Shown: positions 5,880-64,000 of the stretch, piece after piece
Numbering within the stretch: the first letter of the stretch is position 1
How the letters are laid out: each line of letters begins with the position of its first letter
DNA from: an uncultured Planctomycetales bacterium
GTDB lineage: Bacteria; Omnitrophota; Gorgyraeia; Zapsychrales; Fredricksoniimonadaceae
DNA length: 64,000 bases
Assembly: GCA_964583975.1 (NCBI GenBank)
Contig: CAZOXU010000003.1
Span: forward strand, 7,805-71,804
Direction: 5' to 3'
Made by a program: the position numbers and the translations under genes
The notes under the pieces: generated by a model
What the model was told of the DNA's origin: nothing
Databases searched by the model: none
The model's input: only the letters and a program-made list of their open reading frames with translations

Positions 5880-5889
5880 TTAATTCTTT

Positions 5890-11353: not shown

Positions 11354-11368
11354 TTACCGTTGAAACAA

Positions 11369-11404: not shown

Positions 11405-11419
11405 AATTATAACCGTCTT

Positions 11420-18135: not shown

Positions 18136-18183
18136 ATTTTTCTAATTTACCTAAATTAATTTCTATGTTATAAAGATGCGCTT

Positions 18184-20759: not shown

Positions 20760-20773
20760 GAATTGGAAACAAA

Positions 20774-23007: not shown

Positions 23008-23367
23008 CTACGCTTCCTTCGGCCACCAGTGGCTTCTGATTTGATCTGCACAAGTTCTGGATAAATACTGACTGATTTCTTGCTTATCATCATCTTTGAT
23101 TCTACTAAATTCCATACCATAAAAATAACGTCCTTCAATTTCTTTATTCCAACGCACCTGGGCTTGAATATTTAGAACAAGATCGTCTTTTAAGTCTAAC
23201 AGCACATCAAACACATAAGCATCAGGTAATGGTTCTTTAGAGGAAATCTTAATTCCTTTTAAATTCATGTCCTCAATACAGCATTTTCGTTCCCATTCAT
23301 GTTCTCTTATTTTCATTTTTGCTTTTTCACCTATTTGCCAACGGGGGATTTGGCGAAGTTCAGTCAT
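23008..23367 (-). CDS. PilZ-domain-like protein (c-di-GMP binding family)
   Basis: 119 aa. RxxxR-like IPRWQIGEK and D/NxSxxG-like EDMNLKGIKI motifs in the right order and spacing. Confidence 0.4.
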   Translation of the reverse strand: MTELRQIPRWQIGEKAKMKIREHEWERKCCIEDMNLKGIKISSKEPLPDAYVFDVLLDLKDDLVLNIQAQVRWNKEIEGRYFYGMEFSRIKDDDKQEISQYLSRTCADQIRSHWWPKEA

Positions 23368-23410: not shown

Positions 23411-26400
23411 CTACCTTCTATAGTTGATTCTAAGAAATCCTCTGAGCCATACCCAGAGCCAAAAATAAAATCTACCGATCTTTTGAAGAATCTCTTCTAA
23501 TCTATTGGTCTCTGCCAAGGGCAAGATAGTATCCACTAGTGGCTCTAAAGATAACTGCTGTTCATCGTTGCTCCTTTGAAAAAATCTACTTTCACCATTG
23601 TTCATTCGATTTTCTCGATAATTCACTATTCTATTTTCTTCAATGGCGCTAGGATCCGCCAGCAGTGTACGTATGGCATCAAAAAACATCCCGTGGCCAA
23701 AGACAATGATTGTTTTGCCTGGATAAGATGCATTTAATTCATCAATAAATCTCTTGGCGCGAATAAGCAAGGCAATAAAATTCTCCCCACCCTCATAGGC
23801 TGCGGTCGCATCCATCAAAACCAATCGATCATAAACTTTCTTTGGCCCTGTCGGCAGCTCTTTGATGGCTACATTTCCTGCAACACCGATATTCATTTCT
23901 TTAATCCCCTGGTGGACAATGATCTGATGCTGTGCGATACCAGATAAAGTTAAAAATGCCTGGGCTGTCTGTAATGCTCTGCCCAAAGGTGAACTAATAA
24001 TCACTACCTTCTTTGCAACAATAGCTTGTCGATACTTTTGCCACAACCGTTGTGCCAAGAATCCAGCTTGGCTATGCCCCGTTGCATTTAAGCCATTAAA
24101 TTTAGGATCATCCTGGGCACCTTGCAGACAATGCTGAAAATTCGCATCAGTTTCACCATGACGAGCAATTTCTAAATCAAAATTAATTTTTAGGTTGCCT
24201 TTTGATCTTAGACGACCAGTTAATGGATTTATTTCAAGCAAATCTTCCATTTCTTCCAAAGTTTGCCACTTCCACCCGTTGGTTAAATCAAAACGAAGGC
24301 CAGGACCATAAGGCTTGAAACCCATTTTAGCAAGATTATCTCCTGCCTTTGAGGTCAAGCGTACGATCCAAGCTACGCTAAATCCGCGTCCTGCTAAAAA
24401 TGGAAACAACATGCACTTAAAATATTTCTCCATAAAACGCCAATCTAATTCTCCTCTACGGCTTCTTAACTTCCCATCACTGATAATGGCTTTATCATCC
24501 TTTCTTGTAATATGAATGAACATTATTGCATCGAGGCTTGATTGAGAATCAGAACGAAGCACAAAGGTTAAATAATTCTGATTATTGCTTACAATTCCTA
24601 AGGTAAAACCCCTTAATGATTTGGGAACCAAGTTCTGTAAAATCCATTGTTGAGGATCAGCATCGGTGATCTGCAAGCTCAGATTATGACGAGAATGTCG
24701 CAGATCTTGTGAAGCGGCTCCGACCCAGGCATTATGAGGATCTGGAACTTGATTAATGTCTAGGTAGTGAGATTGTTCTTCGATTGAGAGTGCTGCGTAT
24801 TCTTCAGGAGTAATTAAATGCCAAATGGGTTGATTCTCATCTGTGACAAATCGGGTTTTCTTAACCCATTTAGGCTTTTCCTTCAAGCCTGATTTTTGAT
24901 TCATCCATTGAATGACCGCCTGGATCTGTTCAATAAACTGACCTCTCTTTGTAAGAAATTTTCGCGCATTTTTCTTTATAAACTCTTTATGTCTAGATAG
25001 ATTCAAATGACCTAACTTAAAATGCGCCACAAATTGATCCACACACATACGTTGCGTAAAGGCAATTTCAAATCTTTGAGCGCCCTCACGAACAACTAAT
25101 AACGGCGCGTGCGCCAAACGCCGCTTAACCAAAACAACTGGGTCGTTCTTCTCTCCAATGATTTGCCAATAACGAAAACCCAGTAATGTACGACGCAATT
25201 TAACCTGGGGCTCATGATTAAAATGAAGCTCTACGTTATATTCTTTAAGCCAAGGGAGTTGAAAGACGCCTTTTCTGATTCTAAAAGGTGCGACATCTTC
25301 AAAACCTTTCGGAGGCATTAAAAATAGCGTGATATTATCAGATATTCTTCGACGTAAAGGACGGATGGATGAAGCAATCTTAGGAAAATTCTCTTTTTGA
25401 ATTTCTAAACAGTACTCTGCTCCTTCTCCAAAAAACACCGCATATAGAATCCAATTTAGAATATTAGCGACACCCAAAACAACAAACAATACAAACAATA
25501 CGTTAAGATCCCCATACAAATAAATGCCATAACCAATCGCAAAACTTGCTAAATGCACAAAATTGTCAAACAACGTGTAGACATTCACTAACACATGGCT
25601 GATACTGGCAAAGCCTCTCTTGACACTTTTAGGTGAATACTCAATCTCTCCCCAGTCGATTTCAGTAATTACTTCATGATAAAACTCATGTGTAACATCG
25701 AGAATAATGTCCCAAACAAGCAAAACAATAAAATAGGCGCTTGCACTTAAGGCAAACCAATATCCTGCGGACCAATGACCTTCAAAAGAACTTCTGGGAA
25801 TTGCTGCATAATTAATAGCCACAAGAATGATTTCAACAAGTGCATACACCAGAATAAAATTCTTCATATTCCTCAGTACTCGTAAATTAGCAACCTTACG
25901 CGGATAAAGACTTCCCTCTGGCTCAGAACTTCGACGATCTCTCCTATCTTGAGCAAATTTAACAGCCAACCTGGAAGACATTGGGCAAATGAACAATGCA
26001 ATTAATATGGATAAGACATGATTGTTTAAGATTTCATATGAAGCTAATACCCCTAATTCTTGCGCTTCATTTAAAATCATCGGCAGGAAAACTCCTTGTA
26101 AAATCGAACCGAAGAAAGTACCTGTTAAATAAAATAAAACGCTATTTCGATATACTTGAGAAAATCGCATAGCTGCAAAGAAATATCTGACTTGTAAAAC
26201 AAAACTCAATTTCTCATGCTTGTAAACAAAGGCGTCTAAGCCTTCTGAAGAAGACAAACCATCTTCGATATCTTCTCGACCATTAATATTTGAAAACTTG
26301 TGATTAGGAAGAAGTACGTTGATTCGGTTAAAAACTTTTAGAAATTGACTCTTAAGCTCTTCTAAAGGAATCTGCCCATTTTCATGCACCAAATTAACTA

Positions 26401-29400
26401 CTTTAAAGATTATTGTCCTAGGTGTAGATTCTTTAATATTCTCTGATAGAAATTGATCTGGCAGACGTCTTAAATCACTATTTTTGTCCCTATAAAATAC
26501 GACTTCTCGTTGTTGTTTGCTATCCAACACCTTGATCAGCGCACCTACACGCCAAGTGTTCTCATCTTGAGGATAAATCACCACATAAACCTTAGACTGT
26601 GGGGTGCTAAAGGTTAATCGATCCTCAAAATTCTCTAAACCTATTAATCGATTATTGTATTCATGACGATTGGCCTCATTCCAAAGTAGCGGAAATTCAT
26701 AAACGGGCAATTCTTTAACATGCTCTTCCACTTCCTCTTCATCATCCCCTTGTATTTTTTTATTACTTAGTCCCAGACCTATTTTTGATTTTAACCCAGC
26801 ATAAAACAAGAAAATTAATGCAAGACTAACCAGCAGACCAGCAACTATTAAAGGAATGGCATAAGGTCTATGATCACTTTCCTCATCATCTTGATTCTCC
26901 CGATTACTTAACTCTTGTTGTTCATTGACTTTATTATTGGGATTTTGTCTGTGGGGTAAGTCGAAGGTAAAGTTTGTTTCTTGAGTAGATCTTGAAGAAG
27001 TAATACCAGGTGCTGCCGTAACAATTGTTTGTGCTGAAGCGGATTGTACGGCAATGCTTAAGAATACAAACAACAGAACTACGGATCTTGTACCTGCTTT
27101 TAAAATTTGCGCAAATGCACCTCCATCCGTACCACCAGTACTGCTCGCTGGACCGCCAACTAAGAGAGGCTCACCATCTGGTGTGGCATCATCTCCTTGC
27201 CAATCTTGTGCATCTTCTTGGGGCACATCTCGATAGTCTGTGCTATTAGTTATAATTAAGGCATCAAGGATTCCTTCGGCACTCTGATCTTTATCTAGTT
27301 TTGAAAATGTCTTTGGATATTCTTCTCTGAAAATCTCTAATTCGGGTCTCTCCTTAATGCTTTTCTCTAACCGACCGTCTTTGATGGGAATGACCGAAGA
27401 TAAATGTACGCCAAAAATCTTATCCAAGCCTACCAGATACGCCGCATGTCTTACCATATCCATAAGATTAGTCTGTTCCGCATCCCGCTGAGAACGTAAC
27501 ACTGTTGTATGGCCAATCCAGAATCCTTCATTAGTGTATTCTTCCAAGGCGTTTTGCATCTTTTTACGACCATTGAGCATAAAAGCACTCAAAAGGAGTC
27601 TGCCTTCATCCTTATTACGTTTCATCCATCGCTCAAAATTTTCTCCTTTTAACGTCGTGTTATCATCAAAAAGAATGACTGTAGCCTTTGTTTTCATTCT
27701 AGCTTGTTTAACGCCATCCCAAAATTTAATGGCCTGCGTAATAATAGGACGCCTTCTGTAATAATCTCCCATATGCTCTGGTGCGCGCTTTTCTCTTGCA
27801 TCGTCCTCTAGTTCAGAAATCTCAAACCACACTTTGAAAGCAATCTTACGATCATTGTTTAAGAAAACTTCAATCTTCTCTAAAGCATCTTCTATGCTTT
27901 TAGAAGCTCCTCTGGCAAAAAGATACTCAGCTAAGGTTCTGATAGCTCCTACATCGATTGTAATGGCCCATTGTTTAAAAGCATCTTCACCTTGGCCCAT
28001 CTGTTCTAACCAATCTAAATAGAAATCCCACACTTTAGGAAACTCATTGTAGTACGCAAGTCTCTCATTAATTTGCCAATCCTTAGGAATCCAATCAAAA
28101 TAAAAGATTCCACTTTTATTGTCTAAAACCACAAATCGATGTTTTCTGGCTTTTTTCACCAGATGATTCACTGGATCTTCCCAAGCTTGAATTTCAGGAT
28201 AGGTCTTGGGCTTGATAGCTTGCTGCAAACTGTCACTCCTTCTAACAAACTCACGTTGTTCTATCGCATCTTCAATAATATCTTCTGAACTCCTTTGGGG
28301 AAACTGTATCTTAGTAGCCCCTTCTTTGGCAGCAGCTTCTTTCTTGGGAGGAAACATAATATCTCGTCCTGCTTGAGAATGTTCTTTCCAAGAGCCTACG
28401 AAAGCAAGGATTCTCTGGTTAATATGAGGATGTTGTCTAAATCTAGACAAGTGCTGATAAACATACATCTCAAATGCATCTCTTGCTTTCTCCTCAAATG
28501 AACATTGATCGAGTTTATAAGCTAAGACCTTGTAAATCTTCTGGATCAGTTTTAGATGTACTCGATGGTATTGCAAATTTCTCGCATTTTGAATTGTAAT
28601 CGATTCTTCTAACACGATCAGTCTTAAAAGCCAGTACCACATCGCTTCGGATGGTTGTTCAAGAATATTGAACATATATAAAGGTGAGGCTGGTTTAATC
28701 TTATCAACATTAAAAACCAATCGTAGGATCATTTTCTCAAATCGATCTGCATCTTCTTGTGTTAAACGTACATATGATTTTCCAAAGTTTTCTATGGCCC
28801 AAAATAGAAGATATGCGTTGGAAGTTGTGAATGTCTCGGGTCTTTCATATAAAAGCGCAATCAAAGCATAAATATAATGTTCCAATCTTTTAAAGAATGA
28901 CTTGGCCAAATCTTTTCCCCTCAAAACCAAGTCATTGTGATTACTTAACATTCTTAAAGGGTCCCACTCAATGACTGTCTTAAGCTTCTTAGCTATGTCT
29001 TCACGGACCATAATGCTCAAGGAAGGATCAACACGACTGATAGAAAGTTCTATTTCTGGTCTTTTTTGATGAGACTTTTCATCATCCGCTCCGACAAAAC
29101 AATTCTTCATATCTTTCAATCGGTAAATTGGCAAAGCCTTACCATTATTAGCTTGGGCAGACTCTTCTTTAAAAACCACGTGATACACCATTGATCCTTC
29201 TTGGGTTTCCCCAACCTTCTTAACATAAATTTGTCGTGCAATGTCCAGCCAATTGCGTCCGATAAGTTTCATGGCTTCTGAAATATTATAAATGCTCTGG
29301 CCATTCCAAATTCTAGGCTCAAGTCTCCCTGAGATATCCTCAGCTATCCCCATAAATCCTAAATCTTCTAAAGCAGCTATTAAACAATTGACCGTATCTG

Positions 29401-32400
29401 TTGAGCTGGCCTCACTTTTGGATGGTTGGCCTCTATTTAAACTTTTTGAATTCGATGCTTCAGGAATACCGATCATATATTCCCCAAAGAAAGGATCATT
29501 GCGAATAAGTTCTAGAATTCTTAAAACATCTCTAAATGGTATGTCTGCACCTTCAGCGAGACTTCGTTCGGTTGCGAAATCCCCGTTCACAAGCATGAGA
29601 CGCAGAATTCCTTCTGCTGCTGTCTTGTCGTCTTCTGAAAAACTTTCTAAGATTCTGGCAACCACTTCTAAAACACGCTCAACAAATCTTTCTGGCATAG
29701 GCTCACGTCCATCACCACGATTTAGCTCTGCATGCCTGAACTTTCCAAACAAAATTTGGAAATGGTTATACGTGACTCGCCTAACATCTTTGAACCAAAA
29801 TTGCTTTCGAACGTCTCTCGGATTTAATCCAGCCTCCTTTAGAAAATTGTCCCAAGATCCAAATTCACGGATAACTTCGATAACAATTAATTTCCCATCC
29901 AAACGAATGTTATGCATTTTTCTATCTGCTATAGAACCTAAGAACACTGCGCTATGCTGCTTCATGGCATATGAAGCAAGAGCCACCTGTCCTTGTGCTA
30001 AGGTTTGGATAATTTCAATTAACTCTTGATATCGAATATGTTTTCTAGATTCGGCTTTTGCCTGAGCCCAGGAGGTAAAAAACTTCTTTGAGACAACTAT
30101 TTTATATAAAGCCTTGCCGCTAACTGGCTGTTTAAACAATTTTGTTAACACAGCTTTAACCTTACCCTCTGGATCACCCTTAATGATACTAGGGCATAAA
30201 TAGAGTGGATCTAATTCTTTAGAAATTGCACCGATGGCCTTTAAGATTTTATTCTTTGACCACCGAATAGTCTTTGGAGCTTTTCGTATGTCTTTAGGAT
30301 TAAGTCCTAACTGTTCCAAAAACTTATCCCAAGATTTAAAAATACGTCCCACAGCTAAATAAACAGAATTAGTGCTAACTTTCTTAAGTTTATATCCATG
30401 TTCTTCTAGATAGGCTTTAATTAAAATCTTTAATTGATCGTTCTTATTCTTCTTAAACTCATATAAATTTAATTGAGCATTCTGTGATACTAAATACCTA
30501 CCAATATTAATAAGTAGCTCGTGTGTCCAGAGTTGCTGATGTGGCTTTTTAATATCTTTTTGATATTCGATTTTTTCTTGGGCAAGTGCTGTATTCACAG
30601 CTTTTTCCCAAGAACAAAGTTCTTTATTGTGGCGAGAAGCTTGATACAAAGACAAACCATTAAGTGGTTTTTCAAAATGCTTTGTTAAAACATCTTTTAC
30701 CTGTACCTCCTTACAAATAAAAGTGTTATTCAAAGAACTCAAACCTAACTGCGTACGTATAACCACAATTGCTTCAAGAATCTTCTGGGTGGTCCAAAAT
30801 TTCTTCCTTCCTTTCTCTTGTGCTCCGACCCAGGCATTTTGTGGATCAGGAACTTGGGTAATATCTATGTAGTGGATTTGTTCTTCGGTTGAGAGTGCTG
30901 CGTATTCTTGAGGAGTGATTAAGTGCCAGATGGCTTCGCCTTGGTCCGTCTTAAATCCAGTCAATTTGACAAATTTAAGCTTATCCTTTAATCCACTTTG
31001 ATTCTCTATCCATCGAATAACAGCATCAATCTGTTCAACAAACTGTCCGCGATTTCTGACAAACTTACGAGCACCGCTATCTCTAAATGCTTGCTGTCTT
31101 GTTTTATTAAGATGTTCTAAACCAAAGCTCGAAACATAGCGATCAACGCAAGTCGAAACTACAGAGGATGCAAAACGCCATTCCTCTGGCGTATTAATGT
31201 TTAAAACATCATCTTTTTCTGTTGAACAATAAAAACTAGCCATGCCAAAACCAATCATCCCCTTCCATCTTGCTACCCTTTGATTGATTCTACCCATTGC
31301 CAAAGGATCCTCGGGCAACAAAGGACGAGGATCATCAGATGTTTTGTTAGGTTGTAAAAGTGATCTTATTTTATGAAAAAGATTCTGCAGACGATAAGCC
31401 CAGCGACTCACAATAAATACACCCGTCCAAATTTCATCAATCTTTTCAAGTTGATGCGCATCATAACTGGTGCCATTAGGTAGGGTAATTTTTTGATTGG
31501 TCGAACGTAAATAATCAATCTCGCTTTGGGCAATGGTAAATTCAACTTCTTTCCAAGAATTGCGTACGACACGATCTTCTCCATGTGGATGCGAAACAAC
31601 TGTACTTAAAGCCATAAACGGTGGTGAACGGCCTGAAGAATTAAAAGCACTGTGCTCTATGAAATTGCGTAATGTTTCCTGGCTACGAATAATCGTGTCG
31701 CCAGGAGCAACTACAATTCGCTTGGCCGAAGTTGGAATAGCTCCTTTAGCACTAAATAAGGCATTGCTAACGCCCATTTTAGCAGTTGTAACAAAAACAT
31801 TGCCAGAGCCGCTAATTGCCTCTTCAAAAACTCGATGGTATTGAGGTCTAACTACACTAATTGTTCTAATACCTATTTGAGCTGCTGTGCCATTGATATA
31901 AGAAATCAGGGGCTGGCCTCCCACAGGAATCAATGGCTTAGGCAGATTAAAACCTAGGGATTGGATTCGTTTACCTTCACCTGCAGCCAAACGTATAACA
32001 ACCCAGTCTTGAGGATCAATCTCTTGCTTCTTATCTTCTTCAAAGGCATGGCGCAGGTCTTCACGGGACAATTTACCGAACTTCATACAGCTGAAATTCA
32101 AAACGACGTTATTATTCTTTCTTTTAGCATCTTTTAATCTTTGTCGATCTCCTTTGTGTTCTAGTGCAATGCCCCCTAATTCCCATATAAAAAATATTAA
32201 ACCTACAATGATTTTGGAAAATATGCTTTCCCGATGACCTTTTTCAAGAGGAGTAAAAGAACGATAAAATACATTGGCTATTCTCGTAATAAGGCTGGCC
32301 CTATGGTACAAGAATAAATCTGCTTCAATTCCCCATTCAGACAAATATTCCAAGCTCTGTCCCTCTAAGATCACGATCTTCTTGGTTTTATCGACAAGAA

Positions 32401-35400: not shown

Positions 35401-38400
35401 GCTTTTTATCAGCTTTGGGTTGAGGTTCAGTAGGCTCACGTTTACGTTGAACCGATTTTGGTTTAGGTACTCTAGGTGGTTGTGGACGAGGGAATTGTGG
35501 CCTTAAACTCAATTGCTGTGAATCAGCCGCTGGATTAGATTCATCAGTCCTCTTGGCTCTACCCAATATAATATCCTCCAAAGCTTCCTTGATGCTTTTA
35601 AGCAGAGCTTCATCTCGCACAAAATTATTAATCAAATTCCTTATAGAAAAATCTGGTACATTTAAGCGTCTAGCAACACGCGTAAGCATCTCACCCTGTA
35701 AAAAAGGTTTTAATTCAGGACCTGTCTTGATCCTTATAATTTCATCTAAAGAAATTCTATCGGCACCGATCCAGGCATTGCGGGGGAATTGGTCGAATGG
35801 GATTGCATCTTTCAAATCATTCTGACTTAAATTAATCCTAGAAAGATCCTGACAATACGTAACGTGAAAATGATTTATGATTATTTGATGATCAAAAGTC
35901 TCAAGCAAGGTGGGTTTGTAATAAAGAATACCGGTAGATAAAATGACTACAAAATGCTGCGCATCATCGCGCCTGATTTTATACAGCTTTAGCTGACTAC
36001 CAAATGTCTGCTGCATTGCGTCCCAAGCGAATCCTGATAACATCAAGACCCTCTTGTTACCATCTTTAAGGGTCACAATATTGATCTGATCTACCGGAAT
36101 CTTGGCCTGATAATGTCGGACGATTGTTCGGAGCTCTGGCTCGGTCACATCAATTCTTTGATGCACTGCCTGCGTGTATGCCATTACCTGACAATTCTGA
36201 TACAACAAAGCCAAAACATCTAAACCATCTAAGTAATGATCAGGGATTCTTTCTACCGCATCGATATTCTGTGCACCTATAAACGCACGCGCTGATTGAT
36301 CGTCTTTTATATTTTGATAAGTATCCCACAGTGAAATGTACATATACTTATTGGCTAAATCCGTATGATAAAGAATTCCCTTCTCAAATGTTAAAGGATT
36401 AATGGTGATAAACACTTTGCGGGCGATTTCTTCGGTCAATACATCTCCTACTTTCTCAAAAACCTCGATGATATCGTAAATGACGCGATGGTTATAGCTA
36501 TGAGCCGTAACCTTTTCCCTGATTTTCTGGGCAATGTCTGTGTATCCCAACTGCTCCAAAACTACTTCCAAGCAATTTTTGAGCGGCAGCCATGTTGCTG
36601 GAGCTTCCAAAAGATACAAGGCTGTCTTTTTGTTTGTGTCCGGATAAACTCTACAGGGACAATCAGCCGCTGATAAAATCTGCGTAATTACCTTTTGCAT
36701 ATCACCCGTGCTATTGAAACGGTTCCTCAATAAAACTTTCCCTCCTTCTTTTAATACCAATGGTAAATCTCGTACAAACTGGACTAAATCTTCTGCATAA
36801 AAATCTACCTGCCATCGCGAAGCATATCCTGCATATGGCCGGCGTTGTGTTATGTACTGGTCTAATTTATGTGCAAGCTCACTGCCTTGCGCATACTCGG
36901 GCATGGCCCACAATATTCGGTCAAACTTATTCCAAACGCCGCTTTGGATAAACTCAGAAGGATACAAACCTGTCTGTGCTTCGACCATGAATCCGCCAAT
37001 GCGTGCAGATACTTTTATATTGGCTGTTTCTAATGAATTACGCGCCAGAACATGAACAGGTCTATCCATATGTAAAGATGCCAACCAGACATTAATACCG
37101 AAGCCTGGCTCGATAGCCAAGACATCCCCACCCGTAACAAAATCAAATGATTCTGGATAATTCTGATCCTTTCCTATCCAACGAGATTTAAAGCTCGAAG
37201 GTGGCAATACTGTTGGGAAGATGGGAAACATCATGCGGTGTAGGCTAGTGGATGAAGCGCTTGCCTTGAGATGCTCATAACCCTGGGCATCAAATTCCTG
37301 CATAGTAACTAACGACGTTTTTTCATCATATTCGACATATACAAAAGGTTTTCGCTTGCCTCCAATGGGGAAAATAATTTGGCCTAAAGACTTATCCTGG
37401 ATATATTGCGCAATGATGCTTTGGTCGCTGGCATACTGCTGAGCTAAGGCTGCCCATTGCTTGGCTGCGCCAAGTCTCATGGAAGAAATTTCAACATAAT
37501 AAGGACTTAAATCAAAATAATGAGGGTATTCATGATGTTTTCCAAGCAGAAGCTCCCTGAGCAGAGATTCACAGAGAACAGGAAAGACAGCAAGCAATCG
37601 ACCATCCGATGAGAACAATAAATCAAAAGAATCAACTTCTTTCGAGTATCCAAAATCGGATAACTCGTTATGTAACAACTGGATTCCTGTGGGAGGTCGA
37701 GGAGGATACAACTTCTGCTCAACCTTCATACGTACCACCATCTCACCAGCAGACATATTTTCTAGACCCAATGTTTTGATCAATTCAGCCGCGACACTTT
37801 CACCCCAAGCTTGATACAAGGCTGGCACAGTCTCTGGAAAACTACGTACAGTCTTAGTAAAACGGTACAAACCTATTTGATAATTACGTCCATTCTTAAT
37901 CTTAACCGATGCTACCTCCTTCATATCAAAAAGATACTCTTCAGCCAAATCTTTAAGAACTTTCTCGCCACGCCGCGGAAAAATTAAATAGATCTCACCT
38001 TTGTCTCGTAGAAATATGGGAGCTGTTTGAAGGAATCGACGTAAAGTCCTATAGTCACTATCAACAATCGCCATATCAAAATACGACAATGGTATGGCGC
38101 CATTTTCATTAGGGTACCATGGCGGATTCCAAAGGATTCGATTAAATCGCTCTCCTTCTTTAACTGGCGCAAAAAGATCACCTTCGCGAACTTCAACCAT
38201 CGTAAAATTACTTAACAAAGCAGCAGCCTCAGATACAGATCTTGGATTAATGTCTATTGCTACATACGTTACATCTTTAGATTGTGTTTGTGTAGCCATC
38301 GACTTGGTTAATTCACCTGAACCTGTACCCATTTCTAACACATGTTCGCCCGGTTGAATCAATGAGGCTAATTGCCTTTCTACAAGTCCAATAATATGAG

Positions 38401-50400: not shown

Positions 50401-53400
50401 ATCCATACTGGATTTCAGTATCATCAGTACCAAATAATCCATCGTCCCATCTTTCCGTTCTATACTCAAATGCCACATGACGATGCTCGCTAGCCCCTGC
50501 AGCCTTCAAACCTCGGTAAGGCGAACCATTTTGCCCTGCTCCAACTTCCGTGACTACCCCGCCATTGATCTGAATCTTCTGTCCAATCAATTCAAACAGA
50601 GCATCTTCATGTTCATTTCCACTGACACCTGTTGAAAATTCACCTAATAGCTCCTTTGCTTGAGCCAATTCTTCTTTACTCCATCCTTGATCTAAATCTG
50701 GACGAAGTTTGAAATCTTCAATTTGTCTAATGAGATACAAATCATTAAATAAATGAATGCCAATAACAATCAGAGCAGTAAGGCTAAAAGGTTGGGTGAT
50801 TAAAATATACGGTAATAATGGCAGGGCAAAACGAAGTGCAGAGATTATGTCATTCCCGAATGCTTTTATCGGGAATCTAGTGCCTGGATCCCCGATTAAG
50901 ACTTTCGGGGATGACAATAAGTTTCCTCTCTTCTCTATATAGACATGCCAATAACCGAGGCCTAAAGCAACCAGCGCAAAGGTTGCATAGGATAAGCCCC
51001 ATGGCAATGCTGCATTTAACCCAAGGGCGATAGCTACTAACGCTGGTGCCTCTAAGAACAAGACACTTAACAATCCAATGACTGGTTGTTGAATATAAAG
51101 ATACATTAAACTTGATGGCGCTTGGGGGGCCTCTCGAACAACAGTCTGTGCCGGAAGGTGGGCTGGCGCTGGTTTTTCTGCTTTAAAAACACTTTTAATA
51201 TATTTCAACACCCACATCAACGCTGTTGCAACAGCAATTCTCTTTTGCTTCTTAAACATTCTTAAGAATATTGCTGCTGATAACATGAGTGTTCGAATCA
51301 AGGTTTTTGGCATAATGACCAGAAACTTCAACTGACCCCAGACTCCTTTAAAATCTCCACCCTCTGTTATAAATTTCACAAGGCGCTTGAATTCTCTTGG
51401 ATAAAATTCTTTGGCTAATGACCAAATTAAGGAAGGTTGATTATTAAAATCTGCTTTGGTATCAGACAATTCATCAGAAATTTGTAAAAATAACATGAAA
51501 TCGTTTCCAAATTCGACGTCCTGTACTTTGTCCTGTGGAAAACGACCTGCAAAAATATTCTCTAATTCCAAAAGACCACCAAGACGCGTTTTCGCTTTTA
51601 GAATCTCCCACATTTTCTCTACAGTTGGATATAATCCGCTTTCTCGCTCTAGAATGTACGACTCAAATAATTCTTGTGAGACTCTAAGCAAAATATCGCG
51701 TAACTTCTTTGTATCAATTTCGTCCTGCGGCATTTGCACTAAAATCTGGTTGGCCTTGTTTTCAAAATCTTCAACAATCTCTGCTCGATCTCGTTTATCA
51801 TCTTTTGCAACCAATGGAGCTTCGATTTCCTGTAATTGCCTTTGAGTTACACCCTTACTTATTAAAAGACTAGATGGAATCACTGGGAATCGACAAAAAA
51901 GCCGAGACTCAGCAAGAATACCCTTCACTTCATCCAAAGATAATTTATGTCCGAATGTGTCTAAAACTACATCTCCTGTGCGCACATATTGGGTCCAAAG
52001 AATCATCAGTAAATCAAATCTAGACTGCTTCACTATATTTAAATCAACACTCAGCATTTTTACCGCAATATATCCAAAAATACGTGTGGTTGAGTTTACC
52101 TTAATTCCATAACCGCTCCCGTCTTGGGTATCTCTTTTACCATTCATCCAGATTTCTCTAATAAGTTTGAGAAAACTAAATCGACGATCTGAATTTTTCT
52201 GTATTAACCAAAACATGTAAACAAAGATACTAATTACTAAGAAGGCTATTGCGCCCCATACCCAATACCCTGAAAGAACAACCCATGGATAAGCTAACCA
52301 TACCCCAAATACCAAAATACCAACAGTTGTAAGGAATGCTGATAAGACATGCCCACTTTGCGCATTGTTTAACTCAACCCCATCGTTTGTTGCTGTCAAA
52401 TCATGGGCAGGTTGTTCTGGGGTTTCTGGCTTCTTGAGAATTAAGATTGTTGATTCTTTTATTAAGAATTTATACCCGAATTCCTTTTGGATAATTAATA
52501 GAGCCCGCTCTAACTGAGCAATCATCCGGATGACATAAAATTTATCAACCAGTTCCTGAAGTATTTTGTGTTTCTTTATTTCTAATTCTATGACCCCATG
52601 CTCTAAATATGGTAGAAGCACTTCATAAATATCATGCTTTTCTAATTCCGCTATCGACCCAGGTGCTTTTAAGCTTCCCTTTTTACGACGATCGGAAATC
52701 CATTCTTTAATATTAGCGATTTCCTCAATATCAAATAAAAGCGAGGGAGGTTCTTTCTTTGCTTTGGCAGGTCTACCGCCAAGTAAAGTTAAATTTAATT
52801 TCAAAGACTTTGCCCGAGAAAAGATAGCAGTAGGAGTAACACCAAAATATTTCGCTAATTGTGAAGCAGTGGGTGGTTGTTCTTTCGTACTAAATAATTT
52901 ATGTGCCTTACGGAATTTAGATACGGTCAACGTTTTTCTTCCAGGGCTTAACTTTAACCGCAATTGTTTTGCTTTGTTAATTACTTGCTTACCAGTGATC
53001 TTTAAAACTGTAGCCAATTCAAAAGCCGTAGGAGCTTTTGCGGATTTCATTAGTTTCTGATAGGTCTCTCTAAATTGTTTTTTCGACACCTTTTCAGTCT
53101 CAGACCTTAGTTTTAATCGAAGAGCATCCGCACGCTTCATAACGGCTCGGTACTTCAAACCAGTAGCTTTGGCTAATTCTCTTCCCGTTGGCAACCGAGC
53201 TCCATCTATCAAACTCCTATAAATAGCGCGGAATTGTTTCTTAGGCAAAACTTTACGCATCGGAGTCAGTTTTAATTTCAAGTCTTTGCTTCGTTGGCGC
53301 ACAACGTCTGGGGACAATTTAAGCTTCCTAGCCAATTCATCTTTATTTGGTTGCTTGCCTTGGCTTGATAAGTCTTTATAGGCAGCAATAATATCCTTAT

Positions 53401-56400
53401 TACTTATGACCTGTTTTTTGTCTCTTACAGGAAGCTGCAATTCATTTAGTCTTTTATTAACAGCTTGGCGGCTAATTGATAACTTATTCATTAGATCTCT
53501 TTTTGTTGGCAATCTTTCTCCAACGCGTAACTCTTGATAGGCTGAAATAAAAACTGATTTACTGACTAGGTAACGTTTAAATAATCTCTTAAATACTAAT
53601 AAATTATGCCGTACATGTACTTCGATGGCCGCCTCTAAGGCTAATTCTCGACTTTTTGTCTTCTGGAATACTTTTTGGAAGGCACGGTTTGTGCGGGTAA
53701 CCAAATCACGTAGTTGTTTTTTATCTGCTGCGGTCAAATCTTCAACAACAAGATTTTTCGGATCGATTTTCTTGTCCTTATGCAACGTTACTAGCGCATC
53801 TGGTGGCGGCAAATCAGTAGATTGACGAATGAATCTCTCTTCCTCCCTGGCGGCTTGGAAAATAAAATCTCTCACAGTACCTGTTTTTATAGCTTTAAGT
53901 AATCGGGGCAAGAATTCAATATTCATACCCGCAACAGCTGACTCACTCTTTAAAATTTCTTTTCTCTTCGCAAGAAGCTCTTTAAGCAATTGAAGTCTAG
54001 CAAGTCTGTTTTTTGCAGCAATTCTACTAGCTAAATCTGCTTGCGCTTGCCTTGCCATCTGACGTTCATGTTCTTCTTGAAGCTTTTGTGCCTTCTGCAA
54101 TTGGCGTTCAATGCGTTTAGATTCTTTTTCAATGGCAGAATCCTTTCTGGACTTTCTTTCCTTAGAATGCTTCTGCTGTGCTCTAGCCATTCGTCTGGCT
54201 TCTTTTTCTTGTGCGTCTTGCATTTTTTGTTGTTCTTTTTCTTTGCGCTTGGCTTCTTTTTGTTGTGCCTTCAGTATTTCTTGCTGTTGTTTTGCTAACT
54301 GACGAGCTTGTTTTTCTTGGGCAAGTCGTTCATTGCGGGCAATTGAAATTACCGATTTTGTGTGCATTTGCGAAGGAATATTTTGGGTTAAATTGATCAA
54401 TAGCCTCTTACCCTCGACATCTTTAATCGGATTACCCTCTGCATCAGCAATGAAAATAGCCCAGGTTCCAACGCCATTAACAAAACGCACATCAACTATG
54501 GAATCAGGATAATCACCAACGATCACTTCTATTCCAGCGAATTTAAGTCTTCTTCCTGTTAACTTTCGGTTAGGATAAATAAAATCTTTTAGAGTTTCTC
54601 TTAGATTAGTTCTGCCAATATCCGCTACCATTTCAACCAGTTCCCCTAAAACAAATGAATCAGGGGTTGTTGCAGGCTTTGGAGCATAAACAGGGTTTAA
54701 CTCTATGGCTCTGCCTGTGCTCAATGATACGGTTGTTTTAAATAATAGGCGCTTAGGTGTGACTTTAAGAATATTTTTAACAAGCACCCGGCCATTATTT
54801 TCACCAAAAAAGGCGATCGATTCTTTGCCGCCAAAAGTCAAATACCCAGCCCCATTCAATTTCTGACCATAAAATTCCATGTGCTTGGTTACCAAATGGT
54901 ATTCCTCATCAACAACGTAATTAAGATAGCAGGAAACAAATTTAGCTTTCTTGTTATCCCAAACCAAAGCAAAGCGTTCATTTAAATCAGATGTTAATGA
55001 CCAAATTTTAATAACTAAGCCATCTCTAAAATAAATAAGGACACGTTGATTTCTATAAGCTTCCAGGCGTCCCCAAGACTTTTGTTCTTGACGATTGGGC
55101 ATTGAACCATCTACCAACATGCGACCGCCGCCAAAACGTAGATTACCAATAGGATCAAGCTGCGTCTCCAATACGACATCACCAAAGCTCAAGAGCTTCT
55201 CACGTTGCAAGCTTCCAGCATAGACATGCAGCACCTTACCTGAGTAAGCTTGCATGATCCTAAAGAACGGATAAACCTTACCGGTTTTGGTCATCTTAAT
55301 TCTAACGGGTAAACCTTCAGACATTTCAAGTTCATAATTCTCGTTGCCATGCGCTGTAAACTTCCCTAAATATTTTCCTACGATAAGCTTACCGCTGAGC
55401 GTCAAACGTCCAGTAATGATCACATGCCCAAGCGCTTTAAGTTGATGCTCGGTTGGATTAGACGGTAAATTTCCTAAAGCAATCTTCTTTAATGAATTCT
55501 TCGTAGGCGTAACCCAAGGAGAGTTCTTGTTATGTCGAAGGGCCATTGCCTTCTTGATATCTTCCTCAAGAGCTTGATATTGAGGCAGATTGCCCGATAG
55601 ATCCTCAACCTTTAGCTTCTTAGCTGCCATCCCCATCATGCCCTTACCTTCTCGCCAAACGTTTAAGTTATGTTTCAAATGCACGATAATAGCGGCCAAA
55701 TAACCCCCAACCCAGAAACCTTTCAATCGCCCTATTTTATATGCTTCTGTTGCACGAGCGGCTAAGTCTGTAAGTTGCGTTAAACATTCGTTTTGTTCTG
55801 TGGCAGATAATTCATCGACTTTAACCCAACCTCTCTCAAAAATAAGCACTTCAGAATCATGGCCCTGTATAAATTTCAAATCTCCATTAATTGTATGTGC
55901 GCGCAACTCCTCTACTACGGCCGCCATCATCCAAATAAGAATACCGAGATTGTATCGACCAACGCCAACTCTTGATGCTAAATTGTATAACCACTTCCAG
56001 CGTGACTGCAGACCAGCGACATGACGTGGGCCATAATGCATCTTTGTCTGTGTATTAAATCTCAACCCTGCAATACTCATTAAAAAGAACGTTATTGCCA
56101 TCAAAATTAGGGATAGCGCCCTATTATTAGACGTAAATGTCATTCCCGAATGCTTTTGTCGGTAATCTAGAACCTGAGTGACTGGATCCCCGATAGAAAC
56201 TTTCGGGGATGACAATAATAGGGCGCTGTCCCCTATTTTTTGAATTACTTTCCCAATCGGTTTAGGATTATGTGTCCGATAAAAATTACGCAAACGTTCT
56301 ACGGTCCACTGGTAAGGAGATTGGATGAGCTCTACATCGATATTGGTTTTGAGTAATTGCAATAAACCTGGTCCAACTATATCATTATCAAAAATCAATA

Positions 56401-59400
56401 ATACCTCTATATGTCCAGCAGCTCCTTCAACTTCTACTGCAAATCTTTTATAGCTCACTTGGGCTTGCTCATCTTGTGCGATCTTAAATTCCCTGGCGTC
56501 TTGAGGGTCATTAATTCCTTGCCTTAATAAAGCGTATCGCTGCTCTTTTCCTTCTTGATCCTTGATGACTAAATAAGGTCTAACGCCAATCGGCTTGATC
56601 TTTATGAAATCAAATAAGAATCCTTCCCAAACTCCTTCGGCATAAGCATAGAATTTCTGGTCAAAAATGGTCTTTAGAATTCCTTCCTCGGGCATATTCT
56701 TACACGTAATAACCACTAATACTTCGTGCCCCTTGTTATCACCAACACGATACATGCTTTGATTGTCTGCAGTCTCTACCATCTCCAATAAACCCCCACT
56801 ATTTTCGACAATGAACATGCCCACCTTGCTGAAATATTGGAAGTTTAATTCATCCATTAGTTGACGGAATCTTGGATATTTCTTAGCATCATCCCCCACC
56901 AAAATATCTATTAGTTCACCGAGCTTTTCAGCCAAATCAACAGAACTTTCCTTAGCTAAATCAATTAAATCATCACGCAATTTTTGGACTGTTGCCAAAT
57001 CTTCATTGACTTTACTTATTTGCTTGGAAAGTTCCTCTTGGGCAGCCAGCGATGCTTGCACGGCTTTTTCATAATCTTCTCCCGCATGGCCTTCGGCTGC
57101 CAGATGCTTGGCCTTATCTAATTTCTTATGTGCTTCTTTTTCTAATTCTTTAGCTTTGGTGAAACTTACTGAGGGGTTTTTAAACATTCGGAAATCTTTT
57201 ACCAACTTATCAACGAGTTTGACTACTTGAGCAGCTCGCTCATGGTAGGCAATGATGTCTTTGATTTCTGTGGAATCATAAGGAACCCGGCCAAAACTCA
57301 AACGGCGGGAAATGGCCTCAGGTGCTGAGCAAGCACTTAAGAAAAATGCAAAAAATAGGCTAATCAATGCCATCAGACTCCAAGGCATTGATCCAGATTG
57401 TGCTGATGCTTGGGCTTCTTTAACAGTATGGGCTTTTAATTTTTGCCACACCATGCTCGCACGAGTGAAGACCAGAGCAATTTTTAAATCTTGATAATAC
57501 GCTTCTAAGATTTCACGGATTTGTTCATCAGAATAATATCCATCTAAATATCGAATGGTTTCACTGAAATAGAGATGTTTTATAGCTGGTAGAAGCAAAG
57601 CTGAAGATGGGTCAATGCCTATGAGAAGAAGGTTTGCTTCCATCATCCGACGAGCTGATTTCGAACGCAAGGTCAAAAAATCACCTTCATCGCTTGTTGG
57701 GTTTTCTTTCGTGATACTCATAGCACTCTTCGCATCCTTAAGAAGCTCCGCTGCCGTGACCACATTATTATCAGAATGTTTGCGAATTCCCGTCATCGGC
57801 CAATCTCGCAGACCGTCTGCTTTTAAGAAAACACCAACATTAGCGATGATGGTTAAATGATGGGTTTTCTTTGCCAATGACTCAGCAGTCATAAAAAGAA
57901 TGTCCGCACGAGATGTATGCAAGGCATACTCACCATTAAAAATTCTCCTGTTTAATGGCATAATTCTTACTTTTAGGGTGTCTTGTAAATTAATCCCTTC
58001 AACAATGACTTCAATATCAAGATCTGCTGGAGATTGTTTAAACCCATAAACAAAACTTCCTACCAAAATAATACTAACGATACGGCCTTGGCGATTGGTA
58101 TGTTTATACAGCTCTTGGGTCAACATTTCTCTTAAAGCTTCTACATCAATCATTTCAACGCGTTTAACAAATTCAGCAATTTGTTGATTGTCCATTCTTC
58201 CATAAATCGTACGTTGTCTGATTTGCTCTGAATAAGAGGGCGACGGTCCAGCTTCTGCAAATTCTTCTAATAAGCGAACATATTCTAATTGGGTCAGTTT
58301 ACTAAAGGCCGGAGATTTAACCCATTTCATTAATGAACGAATTTCGTCACGGCGTTTCTTGTTAACGTTTTTATCATCAGATTTTACAAGTTGAACGTAA
58401 TAATCTTGCACCATAGGCACATAAGATTGGGCTCCTTCCCCTTGTGATGCTCCGGCGATGATAACCGCCCAGGCACGCCAATTATTCATTCGTAACCAAG
58501 CTATTAATTCTTTCTTGATTTGACCATTGATTGATTCATCTTCAACAAAGCTATAGCTTAAGCGGAAAAGGTCTTGCAACCTTGCATCGGTAGCTAAAAA
58601 TCCGAATCGACGGGCACGTTGCAATTTTTTAAGGAGTTTAGGAATCTCTTTAACTTTGAAAGCTTGTAGATTTTCAGGATATTTTGCTCCACCCAAGAAT
58701 AATCTTGTTTCAGATGATAAATGACGCCAATTATCAAGTAGTTGTTTGAGCTTGTGCACTATTCCAGTTATTTGGTAAATAGTAATTATGACAACCGTCA
58801 GTATCCCAATGTCAATTAATGCATAAAGGACACCTTTCATTCCTTCTGCCTTTTGCAAGATAAGGAAAAATGAACTTTCAAGTAGTGTGGCTGCTAGAAA
58901 CAATAGTACTGCTGGGACAGAAATCATGGCGCGAACCTTAGGTAAACTAAAATACGGTCGTTCTTCGCGAAGCAGAATGTCGATTTGCTCATCAGGATTA
59001 ACTAGTACTACCGTCACCTTATTTTTTGGTTCCAGATATAGCTGAAATAGGTTTGGAATATGTTCCCCTTTCACCTGAGCAACGGGAACATAATCACCTG
59101 TTGTCCCCTGATTACTTGGCACAGTAAAATCAATTCTTCGTCCTTCATGGGGAATGACAAATGGCGTCTCAGTATCAAATTTAATACCCTCACCTAAATC
59201 GCGATATTCCTGCATCACACATAATTGTCCTGCTTGATTAAAATAGACAATTACGTCATTTTTGTGGTTAATCAAACGAATTCTCAGGGTTTCTTTCCTA
59301 TTGAGATTAATGCGATAAATACTCGCTGGAAATTCCTGAACGCGCACCTGAAGGGCATCGAAAGTTAATGCAGCACTTGATTTTCTTCTAGGATGTCCTG

Positions 59401-62400
59401 GTTCATATGGAACTCGATAAGTAATAACACCTTCTTTATTAATGATTTCAGTAGGTATTTGGGAAGCTGCAAATCTAATCCATGTACCTCTTCGGGGAGA
59501 AAATTCTGTGACAGCCACATCTTGAGGATCAATGGACAAGCGTTGTTCTTCATAACGCATCGAGAGTTTTTGTTGATACCAATCTCCTAAGAAATTAATT
59601 AAATCACCTTCGTTACTGTAGACAGCTATCAAAACTTCAAAGACAATCATGCCAAGATTTAAGGCTGCCAAAAACTCTGCTAATCGAGGCGCAATAACAC
59701 CTTTCGATAGAACATCAATAATAATAGCAGCCAATATATTACCCATAAACCCGGCTAGGGCCCGTATGCCCTTAGTTTCCCACGGCATGCCGTAGAACAA
59801 CCCTTTTAAAATGCGCCCAACGCCATAATCACGTCTGCGTCCTTGATCGGGTCCGGCAATCAAGTGGCCAAGTTCGTGAGGAATAATAGCTGGGCTCAAA
59901 ACAATTCGTGCAATCCAATTCCCCCACCAACCACGACCTATATGCTCAAATAAACTGGCTGCTAGCGATGGTGTCGGTGCCAAAGAAGTATTAGAAGCAG
60001 CGGCAGACCGAGTTTCAGGTTTTTTTAGAATTTTCACCTCAAGTTGGGTTACTTCAAACTCATACCCATGTCTTTGCTGAATAATCCCTAGAGCCTTCTG
60101 TAATTGGGGATAATTACGAATTATAAGGAATTGATCTCGCAACATATTAAGTATGCTGCTTTTTAACGTTTCTACCGGCATTCTTTCTACGTACATCAAA
60201 AGAAGCTCAATATCATGTTCTTCTAATTCCAGTAGTGAACCTTCAACCTTCAAGCTGCCCTTATTCCTACGATAATCAATCCAATATTCAATATCAGGAA
60301 CTTCTGACGCTTCAAATAAGAGTGAAGCTGTACTGCTTATAGGTTCTTTAGCAACAACAGTGGTGCTTAGAAGAGAATCTGTTGCATGGGGCTTAATCTC
60401 AGGAACAAGGATTTTAGTTACATATTGTTTCATCTTCAGCCTAGTTTTTCTTTTGGGTATAACAATTGGCTTAGGCTGCTGCTTAGGCAGAACCACAGAT
60501 TCTTGACCTTTTAATCGCAAAACTAATCCCAGAACCTTGCTACGAACGCGTACAGCTTTAATTTTCATTCGTAATTTATCAGCGAGTTGACGGGCTGAAG
60601 GGGGAACTCCTTTGTTTTGTATCATCAAACGCTTATAGGCCATGCCAAAAGACTTTCGCGAAACTTCTTTTCTAGAAAGGCGTAATTTCAAGCCTAATAA
60701 ATTGGCTCTGCGACGAACCCTGACTTCAGTGATCTTAAGTTCTTCGCCCATGGCTTTAGGCGTAGGGTATCTATTCTTTTGGGACTTTAACCGTGTATAA
60801 ACCTCTTTATATTTCTCGTCAGAGACATGATTTCTAGCTGGACGAAGTCTTATTCCTAACGCTTTATAGCGTTGCATAAAGGATTCATATGATAGGACAA
60901 GCGCTCTGGCCATCTGTCGTCCGGTTGGAAGCTGTCCTTTGTGTGTTTTCTTAAATATCCTGTATGCACGTTTTATTTCCTTGTCTGAGACTGTCTTTTT
61001 TAAAGGTTTGAGTTTTAAATTCAATGCTCTGCTTTTCTTACCTACCCATTCTTGAGACATTGTAAGGATCTTCGCCAGCTGAATAGAAGTAGGCGCTCTG
61101 CCCTTATGTCGTCGTTTGAATTCACGGTAAGCAGCTCTGAAATCTTTTGCTTTAACTGGAGACCGTCTTTTTCCACCTAACTTTAATTTGAGTTCTTTGG
61201 CTTTGCGGGATGCTGCCTTGTGTGTCATGCCAACCGAATCAGCCAGTTGCTTTAAAGTGGGGATGCTCTTACCCTTCGACAATGCACGATAAGAGGTTAG
61301 AAATTCTTTCTTGGTAACTCTATGTTTGAAAGCTAAATAATTGTATTTGGCATGAACTTGAATAGCTGCTTCAAGGGCTTGTTGGCGATTATTGGTCTTT
61401 TGGAAAACTTTCTGGAAGGCACAATTGGTTCGCTGAACTATTTTAAGTAATTGTTTTCGATTAGTAAATGTCAGTGCTTGGATTTGCAACGACTTTGGAT
61501 TAATTTTGCGGCCTTGATGCAATTTAATCAACGCATCAGGGGGCGGCAGATTCGTTCTTCGACGAATAAACGTCTCTTCTGTCCTGGCTTCTTGAAGCAG
61601 AAACTCTCTTAATTTACCCGCTGCCATGGCTTCTTTCAGCTGAGGCAAACGTAAGGGATTTAAACCAAGCGCAACTGCTTGACTATCTCTATCTACATTA
61701 AACTGAATAATTTCTGCACCGCCAGTCTCATCTAGATCTTCAACATCATCATTCATTCGAGAAGCTCCACGCAAAACAGTGTCCAGCAATGAGGCATCTT
61801 GATTAGAATCTTCCTCTTCTTGACCTTTTAAAAAGTATTCTTTTAATTTTCGTAATGCTCGATCTTCAAGCTGCTGGATCCGTGATCGTCGAATTTCTGG
61901 ATAAAATCTCTCGCTGATTTGTTTAAAAGTTAATGGATGGGTTCTAAAATACCTTAAGAAAATAATATTAGCTTCCCTCTCACTTAAAATCTGAAAAAGC
62001 CTTCTCTTCCAGGCACTATTCAAGTCTTCTAAATCACTTCGCACAAAATCATCCTTACTTCGAGGGTCTGCCACACGATCTTCAAAGCCCCTATGATCGC
62101 CTTTATTATCCATCCAGCCTTTATCTGAAAATAATTTCACCCTTTGGCGTTCTTTACGAGACTTAGTAATGACTTCATTAAATTCCTTACGAATCCACCA
62201 TTCTGCATAGGCTGCAAAACCACTGTTTTTCTTTAACATCTCTAGGTCGCTAGCTTTTTGGGAGGCTCGAAACAGTCCTAGATTACCTGCTAGAATCAAT
62301 TCCATGCTCGAGATTCCAACACGATAAGCACTAGCAAAATATCCATATTTATTAGCGATATAAATGACATACGGAAGGTTGGCATTAACCAAACGAGTAA

Positions 62401-64000: not shown

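Follow-up and report, generated by a model that had tools for sequence, protein, structure and literature searches.

The giant gene and its locus

This report concerns a giant gene on the minus strand of a 64,000-nucleotide (nt) stretch of contig CAZOXU010000003.1 (assembly GCA_964583975.1; the whole stretch is called the window here), and five internal modules with the look of self-cleaving cysteine proteases, which are the sole new feature of this gene. From position 64000 down to 23414 a single open reading frame (ORF) runs through 13,529 sense codons with 0 stops and reaches the window edge without closing; its stop codon is the TAG at 23411-23413. Amino acid (aa) numbers of the giant protein are codons counted from 64000, the 5' end of the gene being outside the window. 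The earliest in-frame ATG within the window, at 63970, is followed by a hydrophobic helix, and nothing marks it as a start; we treat the gene as truncated by the window edge and do not take this ATG as its beginning. The flanks are ordinary chromosomal genes, comprising tRNAs, RlmN, AccA, YkuD, DUF212, ComM, a coiled-coil protein, MutS, MutL and PilZ (Table 1).

In the same 40.6 kb the remaining five frames contain 529-1,249 stops, and at their stop rate the ln P of meeting none along the giant ORF is about -980, which excludes a frame left open by chance. An alternative genetic code was rejected: the sixteen neighbouring ORFs terminate with TAA, TAG and TGA, and the standard code therefore applies, without recoding. 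Against the shifted frames, the codon usage of frame 0 gives the best fit to the neighbouring genes in 45 of 45 consecutive 300-codon segments, and GC1 > GC2 ~ GC3 throughout these 45; the "dark" parts between domains are therefore as coding-like as the recognisable domains. Introns and ribozymes were also rejected, since no RNA family (Rfam) matched inside the giant ORF, which contains no tRNAs either.

A metagenome-assembled origin, together with a mosaic of unrelated enzyme domains that resembles fused genes, might suggest that ordinary genes were joined or read through by an assembly or sequencing error, or that the contig is chimeric. Such an artefact is, in our judgement, very improbable. 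The frame is unbroken and coding-like in its usage throughout, inter-domain sequence included; there are no exact long repeats of the kind that cause joins, no significant tandem arrays, and GC and skew are even along the ORF, so that repeat, RNA and composition scans give no sign of an assembly join in 23411-64000. Moreover, giant ORFs also occupy this locus in at least six relatives whose sequences were assembled independently, and two of these ORFs are complete. In six further lineages the order is mutS-mutL, small genes that usually include pilZ, and a giant ORF on the opposite strand, and the P0004 contig also has a giant gene at this position; the syntenic giant genes include that of Ga0209697_10000424. 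The named close relatives of the flanking MutS (59-78% identity) all belong to Candidatus Omnitrophica/Omnitrophota and, judging by them, the host is an Omnitrophota bacterium; a MutS with 100% identity is encoded on an NCBI contig of 216.5 kb. We are nearly certain that 23411-64000 is part of a genuine giant protein-coding gene, namely its 3' 40.6 kb, and that this gene sits on an Omnitrophota chromosome at a conserved mutS-mutL-(pilZ)-giant locus.

Table 1. Features of the window, from the 5' side of the giant gene onwards, and giant genes at the same locus in related lineages. TM, transmembrane; wHTH, winged helix-turn-helix; SAM, S-adenosylmethionine.
Feature	Position (nt)	Strand	Protein (aa)	Remarks
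Giant ORF	23411-64000	-		13,529 codons plus TAG stop; 5' end outside window
Sigma-70 family module, regions 1.2, 2 and 4	61835-62506	-	499-722	Pfam, PDB, TIGR02937
wHTH-array block, copy 1	59858-61684	-	773-1381	Sigma-r3-like and HTH matches; paralogous to aa 3352-3922
Module A1, PHELGH (HExxH) and TM hairpin	59531-59992	-	1337-1490	Homologous modules
Module B1, divergent Pol-beta-fold nucleotidyltransferase	57407-58669	-	1778-2198	GS..YG..D.D; weak profile matches
wHTH-array block, copy 2	52235-53947	-	3352-3922	Profile and piecewise comparison
Histidine-kinase DHp/HATPase_c module	48641-49111	-	4964-5120	Profile and PDB sequence matches
Module C1, putative papain-like protease	48173-48619	-	5128-5276	Cys5146, His5221, WVG ending Gly5254
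Module A2, HExxH lost (PNHLAQ)	47489-47980	-	5341-5504	Homologous modules
Module B2, Pol-beta-fold nucleotidyltransferase	45515-46720	-	5761-6162	Homologous modules
Trypsin-like serine protease module	43472-44017	-	6662-6843	H/D/S in TEYHVV, DLSLLR, GDSGSP; below Pfam threshold
Peptidase M48 module (HEIAH)	42305-42679	-	7108-7232	Profile match
PglC/WbaP-type polyprenyl-phosphate glycosylphosphotransferase (PGT; Bac_transf)	41111-41635	-	7456-7630	DELPQ..KGDM..RP; profile, PDB
PEMT/ICMT-like membrane methyltransferase (RHPQY)	40631-40912	-	7697-7790	Profile match
HemK-like SAM methyltransferase (WNPPW)	37898-38404	-	8533-8701	Profile, PDB
Pfam-dark domain	36722-37738	-	8755-9093	Common to P0001/P0123; sequence comparison
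Module D1, putative papain-like protease	36149-36613	-	9130-9284	Cys9143, His9212, FIG ending Gly9242
GlmU/RmlA-like sugar-phosphate nucleotidyltransferase	31520-31999	-	10668-10827	Profile, PDB
Module C2, putative papain-like protease (copy modelled)	30755-31204	-	10933-11082	Cys10951, His11026, WVG ending Gly11059
Module D2, putative papain-like protease	29021-29440	-	11521-11660	Cys11539, His11607, FVG ending Gly11637
Module C3, putative papain-like protease	24647-25093	-	12970-13118	Cys12986, His13061, WVG ending Gly13094
Histidine phosphatase (His_Phos_1)	23657-24169	-	13278-13448	RHGETDAN, GHG; profile, PDB
pilZ, directly downstream of giant gene	23008-23367	-		PilZ 1e-10; 43 nt past giant stop
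mutS and mutL	18184-22543	+		Locus anchor conserved in all relatives; neighbour search
L081/L082 giant gene			at least 18,875	Identical 3' ends (2,263 aa) in two independent metagenome assemblies
L083 giant gene (JBGAJA010000002.1)			39,654	Complete
L086/87 giant gene			at least 8,897	
L088/89 giant gene			at least 5,280	
L090 giant gene (Logan SRR33465452_386)			17,116	Complete
L001 giant gene, more distant lineage			at least 2,717	

Recognisable domains and internal repeats

The giant protein of at least 13,529 aa is threaded through the membrane, and carries divergent, non-repetitive enzyme and regulator domains among lineage-specific, anciently duplicated modules. About 12 distinct Pfam families are present in one or two copies each, none of them dominant, and Pfam, NCBIfam and PDB sequence searches concur on the identities of the domains. 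Profile E-values are 1e-33 for Bac_transf, 1e-25 for His_Phos_1, 3e-13 for HATPase_c, 5e-9 for Sigma70_r4, 8e-9 for PEMT/ICMT, 3e-8 for the methyltransferase, 2e-9 for NTP_transf_3 and 1e-6 for M48, and nearly every recognisable domain has kept its catalytic motifs. The initial annotation of this stretch had described a stop-free minus-strand frame of 40.6 kb open at the edge, and the frame stands, the start given for it (23411) being the first base of the stop codon. All seven of the motifs named there (HELGH, GDSGSP, RHPQY, WNPPW, RHGETDAN, the HATPase N/G boxes and DELPQ-KGDM-RP) were recovered in their places, and the profile search suggested as a check on chance matches puts most of them in profile-supported domains. 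Its dozens of TM helices are likewise borne out, with 29-57 hydrophobic segments on the Kyte-Doolittle scale at thresholds of 2.0-1.5.

Several of these domains call for comment. The match of the complete sigma-70 module to TIGR02937 reaches 53.2 bits against a cutoff of 42.9, over model positions 2-164 of 165 (aa 533-722), and SigA region 2 in the PDB matches it at 3.5e-7; lying within a protein of at least 13.5k aa, with TM segments about 700 aa downstream of it, it is not a free-standing factor. The trypsin-like module scores only 20 bits with Trypsin_2 (threshold 27.6) and nevertheless has TEYHVV, DLSLLR and GDSGSP in the correct order; PDB sequence searches with this S1-like region and with the HELGH region returned no match. 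The C-terminal half of the Pfam-dark domain at aa 8755-9093 appears methyltransferase-like by eye only, from its motifs, and for aa 8740-9110 an AlphaFold2 (AF2) model had a local confidence (pLDDT) of 33 and a profile search against the PDB gave no match.

Diverged internal repeats came to light when a full HMMER search compared aa 5121-6320 with 1.84 billion representatives; the 12 proteins matched were all long or fragmentary. The repeats were found by piecewise BLAST and hidden Markov models (HMMs); whole-protein self-BLASTP misses them through culling of high-scoring segment pairs. The two wHTH blocks are each about 600 aa of wHTH-like sub-repeats. The HELGH of module A1 has no profile match, and PHE[LI]GH is kept in homologous modules of three other, unrelated long proteins, so that it is not a chance match. 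In module B, GS..G..D.D is invariant and 3-5 of 10 members give weak Polbeta/NTP_transf_2/PAP matches, which mark the module as a divergent nucleotidyltransferase of the Pol-beta fold. HMMs of A and B, as of the C/D modules described below, found no copies in 91 retrieved loci.

The supermodule formed by the HExxH-TM and Pol-beta nucleotidyltransferase parts (window aa 5788-6197) recurs in unrelated long metagenomic proteins, one of which (P0125, 4,388 aa, Logan) carries it three times; it is an uncharacterised building block of long membrane proteins.

Five modules resembling self-cleaving cysteine proteases

Modules C and D are about 130 aa each and number five in all; the three C copies share 50-63% identity with one another, and D1 and D2 are more distant. 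Between the C copies pN is 0.26-0.36 versus a pS of 0.58-0.71, and dN/dS is 0.17-0.33 with dS saturated, values that indicate purifying selection on the protein and thereby support its translation. The five-way alignment has five invariant columns, three of which are a Cys, a His and a Gly, in a protein whose Cys content is 0.38%. The spacing from Cys to His is 68-75 residues and that from His to Gly 30-33, and in all five copies the motif [FW][VI]G is followed by A or L. The AF2 model of C2, built with only its two paralogues as alignment, has a core pLDDT of about 90 (residues 17-130) and a pTM of 0.72; Cys19 starts the helix 19-25, His94 lies in the strand 91-96, and the Gly of [FW][VI]G sits exactly where confidence collapses. 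In BFVD a Peptidase C7 protein of the hypovirus type is the best structural match (E 0.07, prob 0.72), and the top structural matches as a group are cis-cleaving leader proteases, namely potyvirus HC-Pro (C6), the arterivirus nsp1 papain-like cysteine proteases, hypovirus p29 (C7) and closterovirus L-Pro. On balance we lean, if not strongly, towards a papain-like fold for the C/D modules.

The comparison with viral leader proteases can be made residue by residue. HC-Pro has Cys706 and His779, a spacing of 73, and cleaves in cis at YxG/G, the slash marking the cut (PMC6357015); nsp1beta of PRRSV has Cys270 and His339, followed by a C-terminal extension (PMC13512413). The C/D modules resemble these enzymes in their predicted minimal fold, with Cys at the N-terminus of a helix and His on a strand, in a Cys-His spacing of about 60-75, in a Gly (a putative P1 residue in C/D) placed 30-45 residues past the His, where the protease itself ends, and in their placement at the end of the segment that would be released. 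We take the cleavage site of nsp1beta to be WYG/A, and that of equine arteritis virus nsp1 presumably follows G260 (C164, H230, G260/G). Unlike the leader proteases, the C/D modules stand on a bacterial chromosome, in five copies within one ORF, and without sequence similarity to the viral enzymes; their third catalytic residue and their cleavage are putative, and the structural scores are modest. They also differ from Peptidase C39, the bacteriocin-processing family found near the N-termini of Omnitrophota giants, in being internal, repeated and smaller, with no match to PF03412 even at E <= 10.

We propose that the C/D modules may be minimal papain-like proteases that would cleave in cis after their own C-terminal Gly. 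The polyprotein would then be cut after Gly5254, 9242, 11059, 11637 and 13094, with predicted products ending at aa 5254 and spanning aa 5255-9242, 9243-11059, 11060-11637, 11638-13094 and 13095-13529, and the cuts would release membrane-anchored multi-enzyme blocks. That the giant protein is self-cleaved in this manner is a tentative proposal, and one that we consider doubtful at present. It is somewhat easier to believe, if still short of an even chance, that the modules are real Cys/His peptidase-like or binding domains that act in trans or are non-catalytic (C39-like, deubiquitinase-like or docking), with [FW][VI]G as a structural motif and no self-cleavage. Two observations speak against such a role. 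The invariant Gly lies exactly at the end of the confident fold, 30-33 residues past the His, as in cis-cleaving leader proteases; and every module closes a cargo block, the series being a block ending in the histidine kinase (HK) and C1, then A2-B2-S1-M48-PGT-ICMT-methyltransferase-D1, HTH-TM-GlmU-like-C2, a short repeat block with D2, and a TM cluster with C3, while none is present in the closing His_Phos_1 block, whose end is the stop codon.

A number of findings weigh against the polyprotein proposal and the wider account of the protein. The structural scores of C2 are modest and its AF2 alignment shallow; Pfam at E <= 10 and a five-copy profile against the PDB gave no peptidase match for C/D, and Foldseek of the module C model against the PDB found no match. 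C/D copies are absent from aa 1-5100, from the 91 retrieved loci and, by tblastn with C2, from phages. About 80% of the giant protein lacks an assignable fold, and its topology is threshold-dependent, with TM counts that range from 29 to 69; a TM-parity test of whether cofactor-dependent domains fall on the same side flips with the hydropathy threshold.

Turnover of the giant gene at a fixed locus

When the window is compared with the lineage that has the complete 39,654-aa gene (L083), aa identity is 70-86% from 5.4 kb to pilZ (23.4 kb) and ends exactly at the end of the giant gene. The last 2,263-2,718 aa of seven syntenic giant genes have no mutual similarity by BLASTP or phmmer, and the 3' ends have none to the whole 13.5k aa of the window; MutS is 71-84% identical among the closer six of these lineages. 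The 3' domain sets also differ, with GT9, a methyltransferase, an Rce1-like domain and M50 in L083, only HTH in L081, Pkinase and adenylate kinase in L001, and His_Phos_1 in the window. Different domain sets combined with a lack of similarity argue for 3' turnover by module replacement rather than by divergence alone, so far as these sequence comparisons go. Homologue searches with aa 1-5000 and aa 8530-13529 returned only three matches, covering 3-7% of the query and all in other long multi-enzyme proteins; the database evidently lacks the window's protein, which was itself not returned, and may lack very long proteins altogether, and this scarcity is therefore weak evidence. A metagenome scan with aa 5001-8529 gave only HATPase-level matches.

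A palindromic element of about 74-82 nt, similar to a miniature inverted-repeat transposable element or a Rickettsia palindromic element, occurs twice in the giant ORF, at 50847-50920 and 56137-56218 (aa 4361-4385 and 2595-2622), with a DNA identity of 83-90% and the termini TGTCATYCCCGAA...TTCGGGRATGACA; there are 4 matches of the 13-mer against 0.11 expected. An 8-nt indel shifts the second halves of the copies into different reading frames, so that conservation is at the level of nucleotides; both copies nevertheless remain open in frame. The RNA hairpin has a predicted energy of -34 kcal/mol (z -6.3), and each copy lies about 10 aa ahead of a TM helix. No copy was found in the 91 retrieved loci. 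The element recalls the in-frame Rickettsia palindromic elements.

It may be asked whether something other than what its domains do keeps the frame open, the gene being, for example, a fast-turnover collector of captured gene fragments in which enzyme domains are relics. Syntenic 3' ends without similarity and with different domain sets would fit such a collector, as would the loss of HExxH from module A2 and the tolerance of palindromic elements in frame. We nevertheless hold it to be improbable: catalytic motifs have been kept in almost every recognisable domain, dN/dS between the paralogous C modules is low despite saturated dS, and unrelated long proteins contain conserved forms of modules A and B.

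Other features of the flanks

Upstream of the mutS-mutL anchor are tRNA-Ala(GGC) at 4950-5025 (+) and tRNA-Leu(CAA) at 5421-5507 (+), the region of the latter being conserved in L083. An IS200-like Y1 transposase ORF (10892-11353, +) overlaps the end of comM, and a 924-aa beta-helix/TIG-domain ORF lies at 15065-17839 (-); both are absent from the otherwise collinear L083 and are therefore lineage-specific insertions by the giant-gene locus. A 990-aa coiled-coil protein (11420-14392, -), with strong AT skew and a GC2 of 0.25, is conserved in position in all relatives at an identity of only about 40-50%; it is the fastest-evolving recognisable neighbour and a yardstick for the rate of change of the giant gene. 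A 66-nt inverted-repeat pair (18073-18138 and 20694-20759, 91% complementary) brackets mutS, and its arms are each palindromic (GTAGGGGC...GCCCCTAC), like intergenic elements of the repetitive extragenic palindromic type. In the L090 contig (1-5700), comM is truncated beside a serine recombinase and an SNF2/VRR_NUC cluster, upstream of the mutS-giant locus, in what looks like an integrated element in comM.

Relation to known giant genes

The gene belongs to a class of Omnitrophota giants already on record, the Archaeovorin-like or multi-enzyme class, whose type is the 39,678-aa LiM protein of Velamenicoccus archaeovorus (West-Roberts et al., 2023, bioRxiv 10.1101/2023.11.21.568195; Seymour et al., 2023, PMC10066038). 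According to published descriptions, members of the class have numerous TM helices, poorly conserved sequences and a small number of divergent domains, with methyltransferase and HATPase_c ranking among the most frequent; in most cases an Omnitrophota giant gene has pilZ after it (West-Roberts et al., 2023). A divergent SecA_DEAD domain, an N-terminal C39/S8 peptidase and an upstream T2SS-like locus also characterise the class. Size criteria are an ORF of >20 kb (Seymour et al., 2023) or >90 kb (West-Roberts et al., 2023); the 40.6 kb or more seen here, cut by the window edge, exceeds the first. The likeness to Archaeovorins extends to phylum (by the relatives of neighbouring genes), to an ORF of tens of kb that encodes many TM helices, and to thinly spread, divergent domains, among them methyltransferases, peptidases, HATPase_c and a sugar transferase; a pilZ gene directly downstream and poor conservation between genomes are also shared. 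Unlike Archaeovorins, the visible 13,529 aa, which lack the N-terminal part, contain no SecA_DEAD and no C39/S8 peptidase by Pfam and NCBIfam, nor HEAT/TPR, GT1/GT5, GH or NUDIX domains; the window protein has instead a sigma-70 module and wHTH arrays, and its locus is anchored by mutS-mutL.

The gene also resembles the "multi-enzyme metabolic cluster" Class 1 and TM-only topology group of Nielsen & Lui (2026, bioRxiv 10.64898/2026.06.07.730766), where 80% of clusters are singletons, in that it has many Pfam families with none dominant, about one TM helix per 250-450 aa, a unique sequence, and the module-1 content of methyltransferase and HATPase_c. In their catalogue sigma factors, processing and cleavage go unmentioned (0 text hits), and it differs from the present case in that here diverged internal repeats of unannotated modules (A, B, C/D and the wHTH block) have been resolved.

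The initial annotation had likened the gene to Omnitrophota giants and proposed a search of relatives for a syntenic copy; the MutS relatives, the downstream pilZ and the six related lineages with a giant gene at the same locus confirm the likeness. It had further called the sigma-like, kinase-like and nucleotidyltransferase content unusual. For the kinase this does not hold, as 136 of 779 Pfam-positive long Omnitrophota proteins contain HATPase_c (137 of 779 contain a methyltransferase domain), and HATPase_c is one of the top 20 Archaeovorin domains (West-Roberts et al., 2023). Only the sigma-70 module has no mention in the text of Nielsen & Lui (2026) or of West-Roberts et al. (2023).

Function and significance

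As far as domain content can show, a role at the inner membrane, in the chemistry of envelope glycoconjugates and of membrane proteins, is suggested by the PGT together with the sugar-phosphate nucleotidyltransferase, the membrane and soluble methyltransferases, the phosphatase and the membrane-embedded peptidases; the kinase, sigma-70-like and wHTH modules could serve there as regulatory or tethering parts. The cofactors that these domains need favour a place on the cytoplasmic face over one on the cell surface; the "surface or envelope machine" of the initial annotation is plausible. In the literature model for the class, a single uncleaved giant would be largely extracellular and would serve prey attachment and cell-wall degradation (Kizina, 2022; West-Roberts et al., 2023). 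A pilZ gene downstream as in published loci, many TM segments and the presence of peptidase modules are all in keeping with such a predation effector. The visible 13.5k aa, on the other hand, contain no glycoside hydrolase, lytic transglycosylase, dockerin, lectin or adhesin domain, and the sigma-70, HK ATPase, SAM methyltransferase, NTP transferase and PGT domains require cytoplasmic cofactors or partners. For this protein we consider the predation-effector model unlikely, though still a rival to be reckoned with. Taken as a whole, our preferred account, that of a genuine giant gene of a known class with candidate protease modules among its domains, is in our view probable.

As a giant ORF the gene is one more example of a class with thousands of cases catalogued in 2022-2026, and it is ordinary for the Omnitrophota. 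The C/D modules bear on the question of whether a giant ORF yields one polypeptide or a processed product; West-Roberts et al. (2023) only speculate on C39/S8 domains in the processing of giants. It is possible, if unlikely on what we have seen so far, that giant ORFs of this kind in Omnitrophota encode, instead of single proteins, bacterial polyproteins with embedded autoproteases similar to HC-Pro and nsp1. The Cys/His/Gly modules provide exact, testable candidate cleavage sites, and a small domain fit for expression and mutation. The locus has its own interest, as mutS-mutL-pilZ is fixed and yet the 3' 7 kb of the giant gene are unrecognisable between lineages as close as those compared here; the fixed locus and divergent 3' end therefore make this a defined system for studying module turnover in giant genes. 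Self-cleavage, if true, would represent a viral-style expression strategy in a cellular chromosome.

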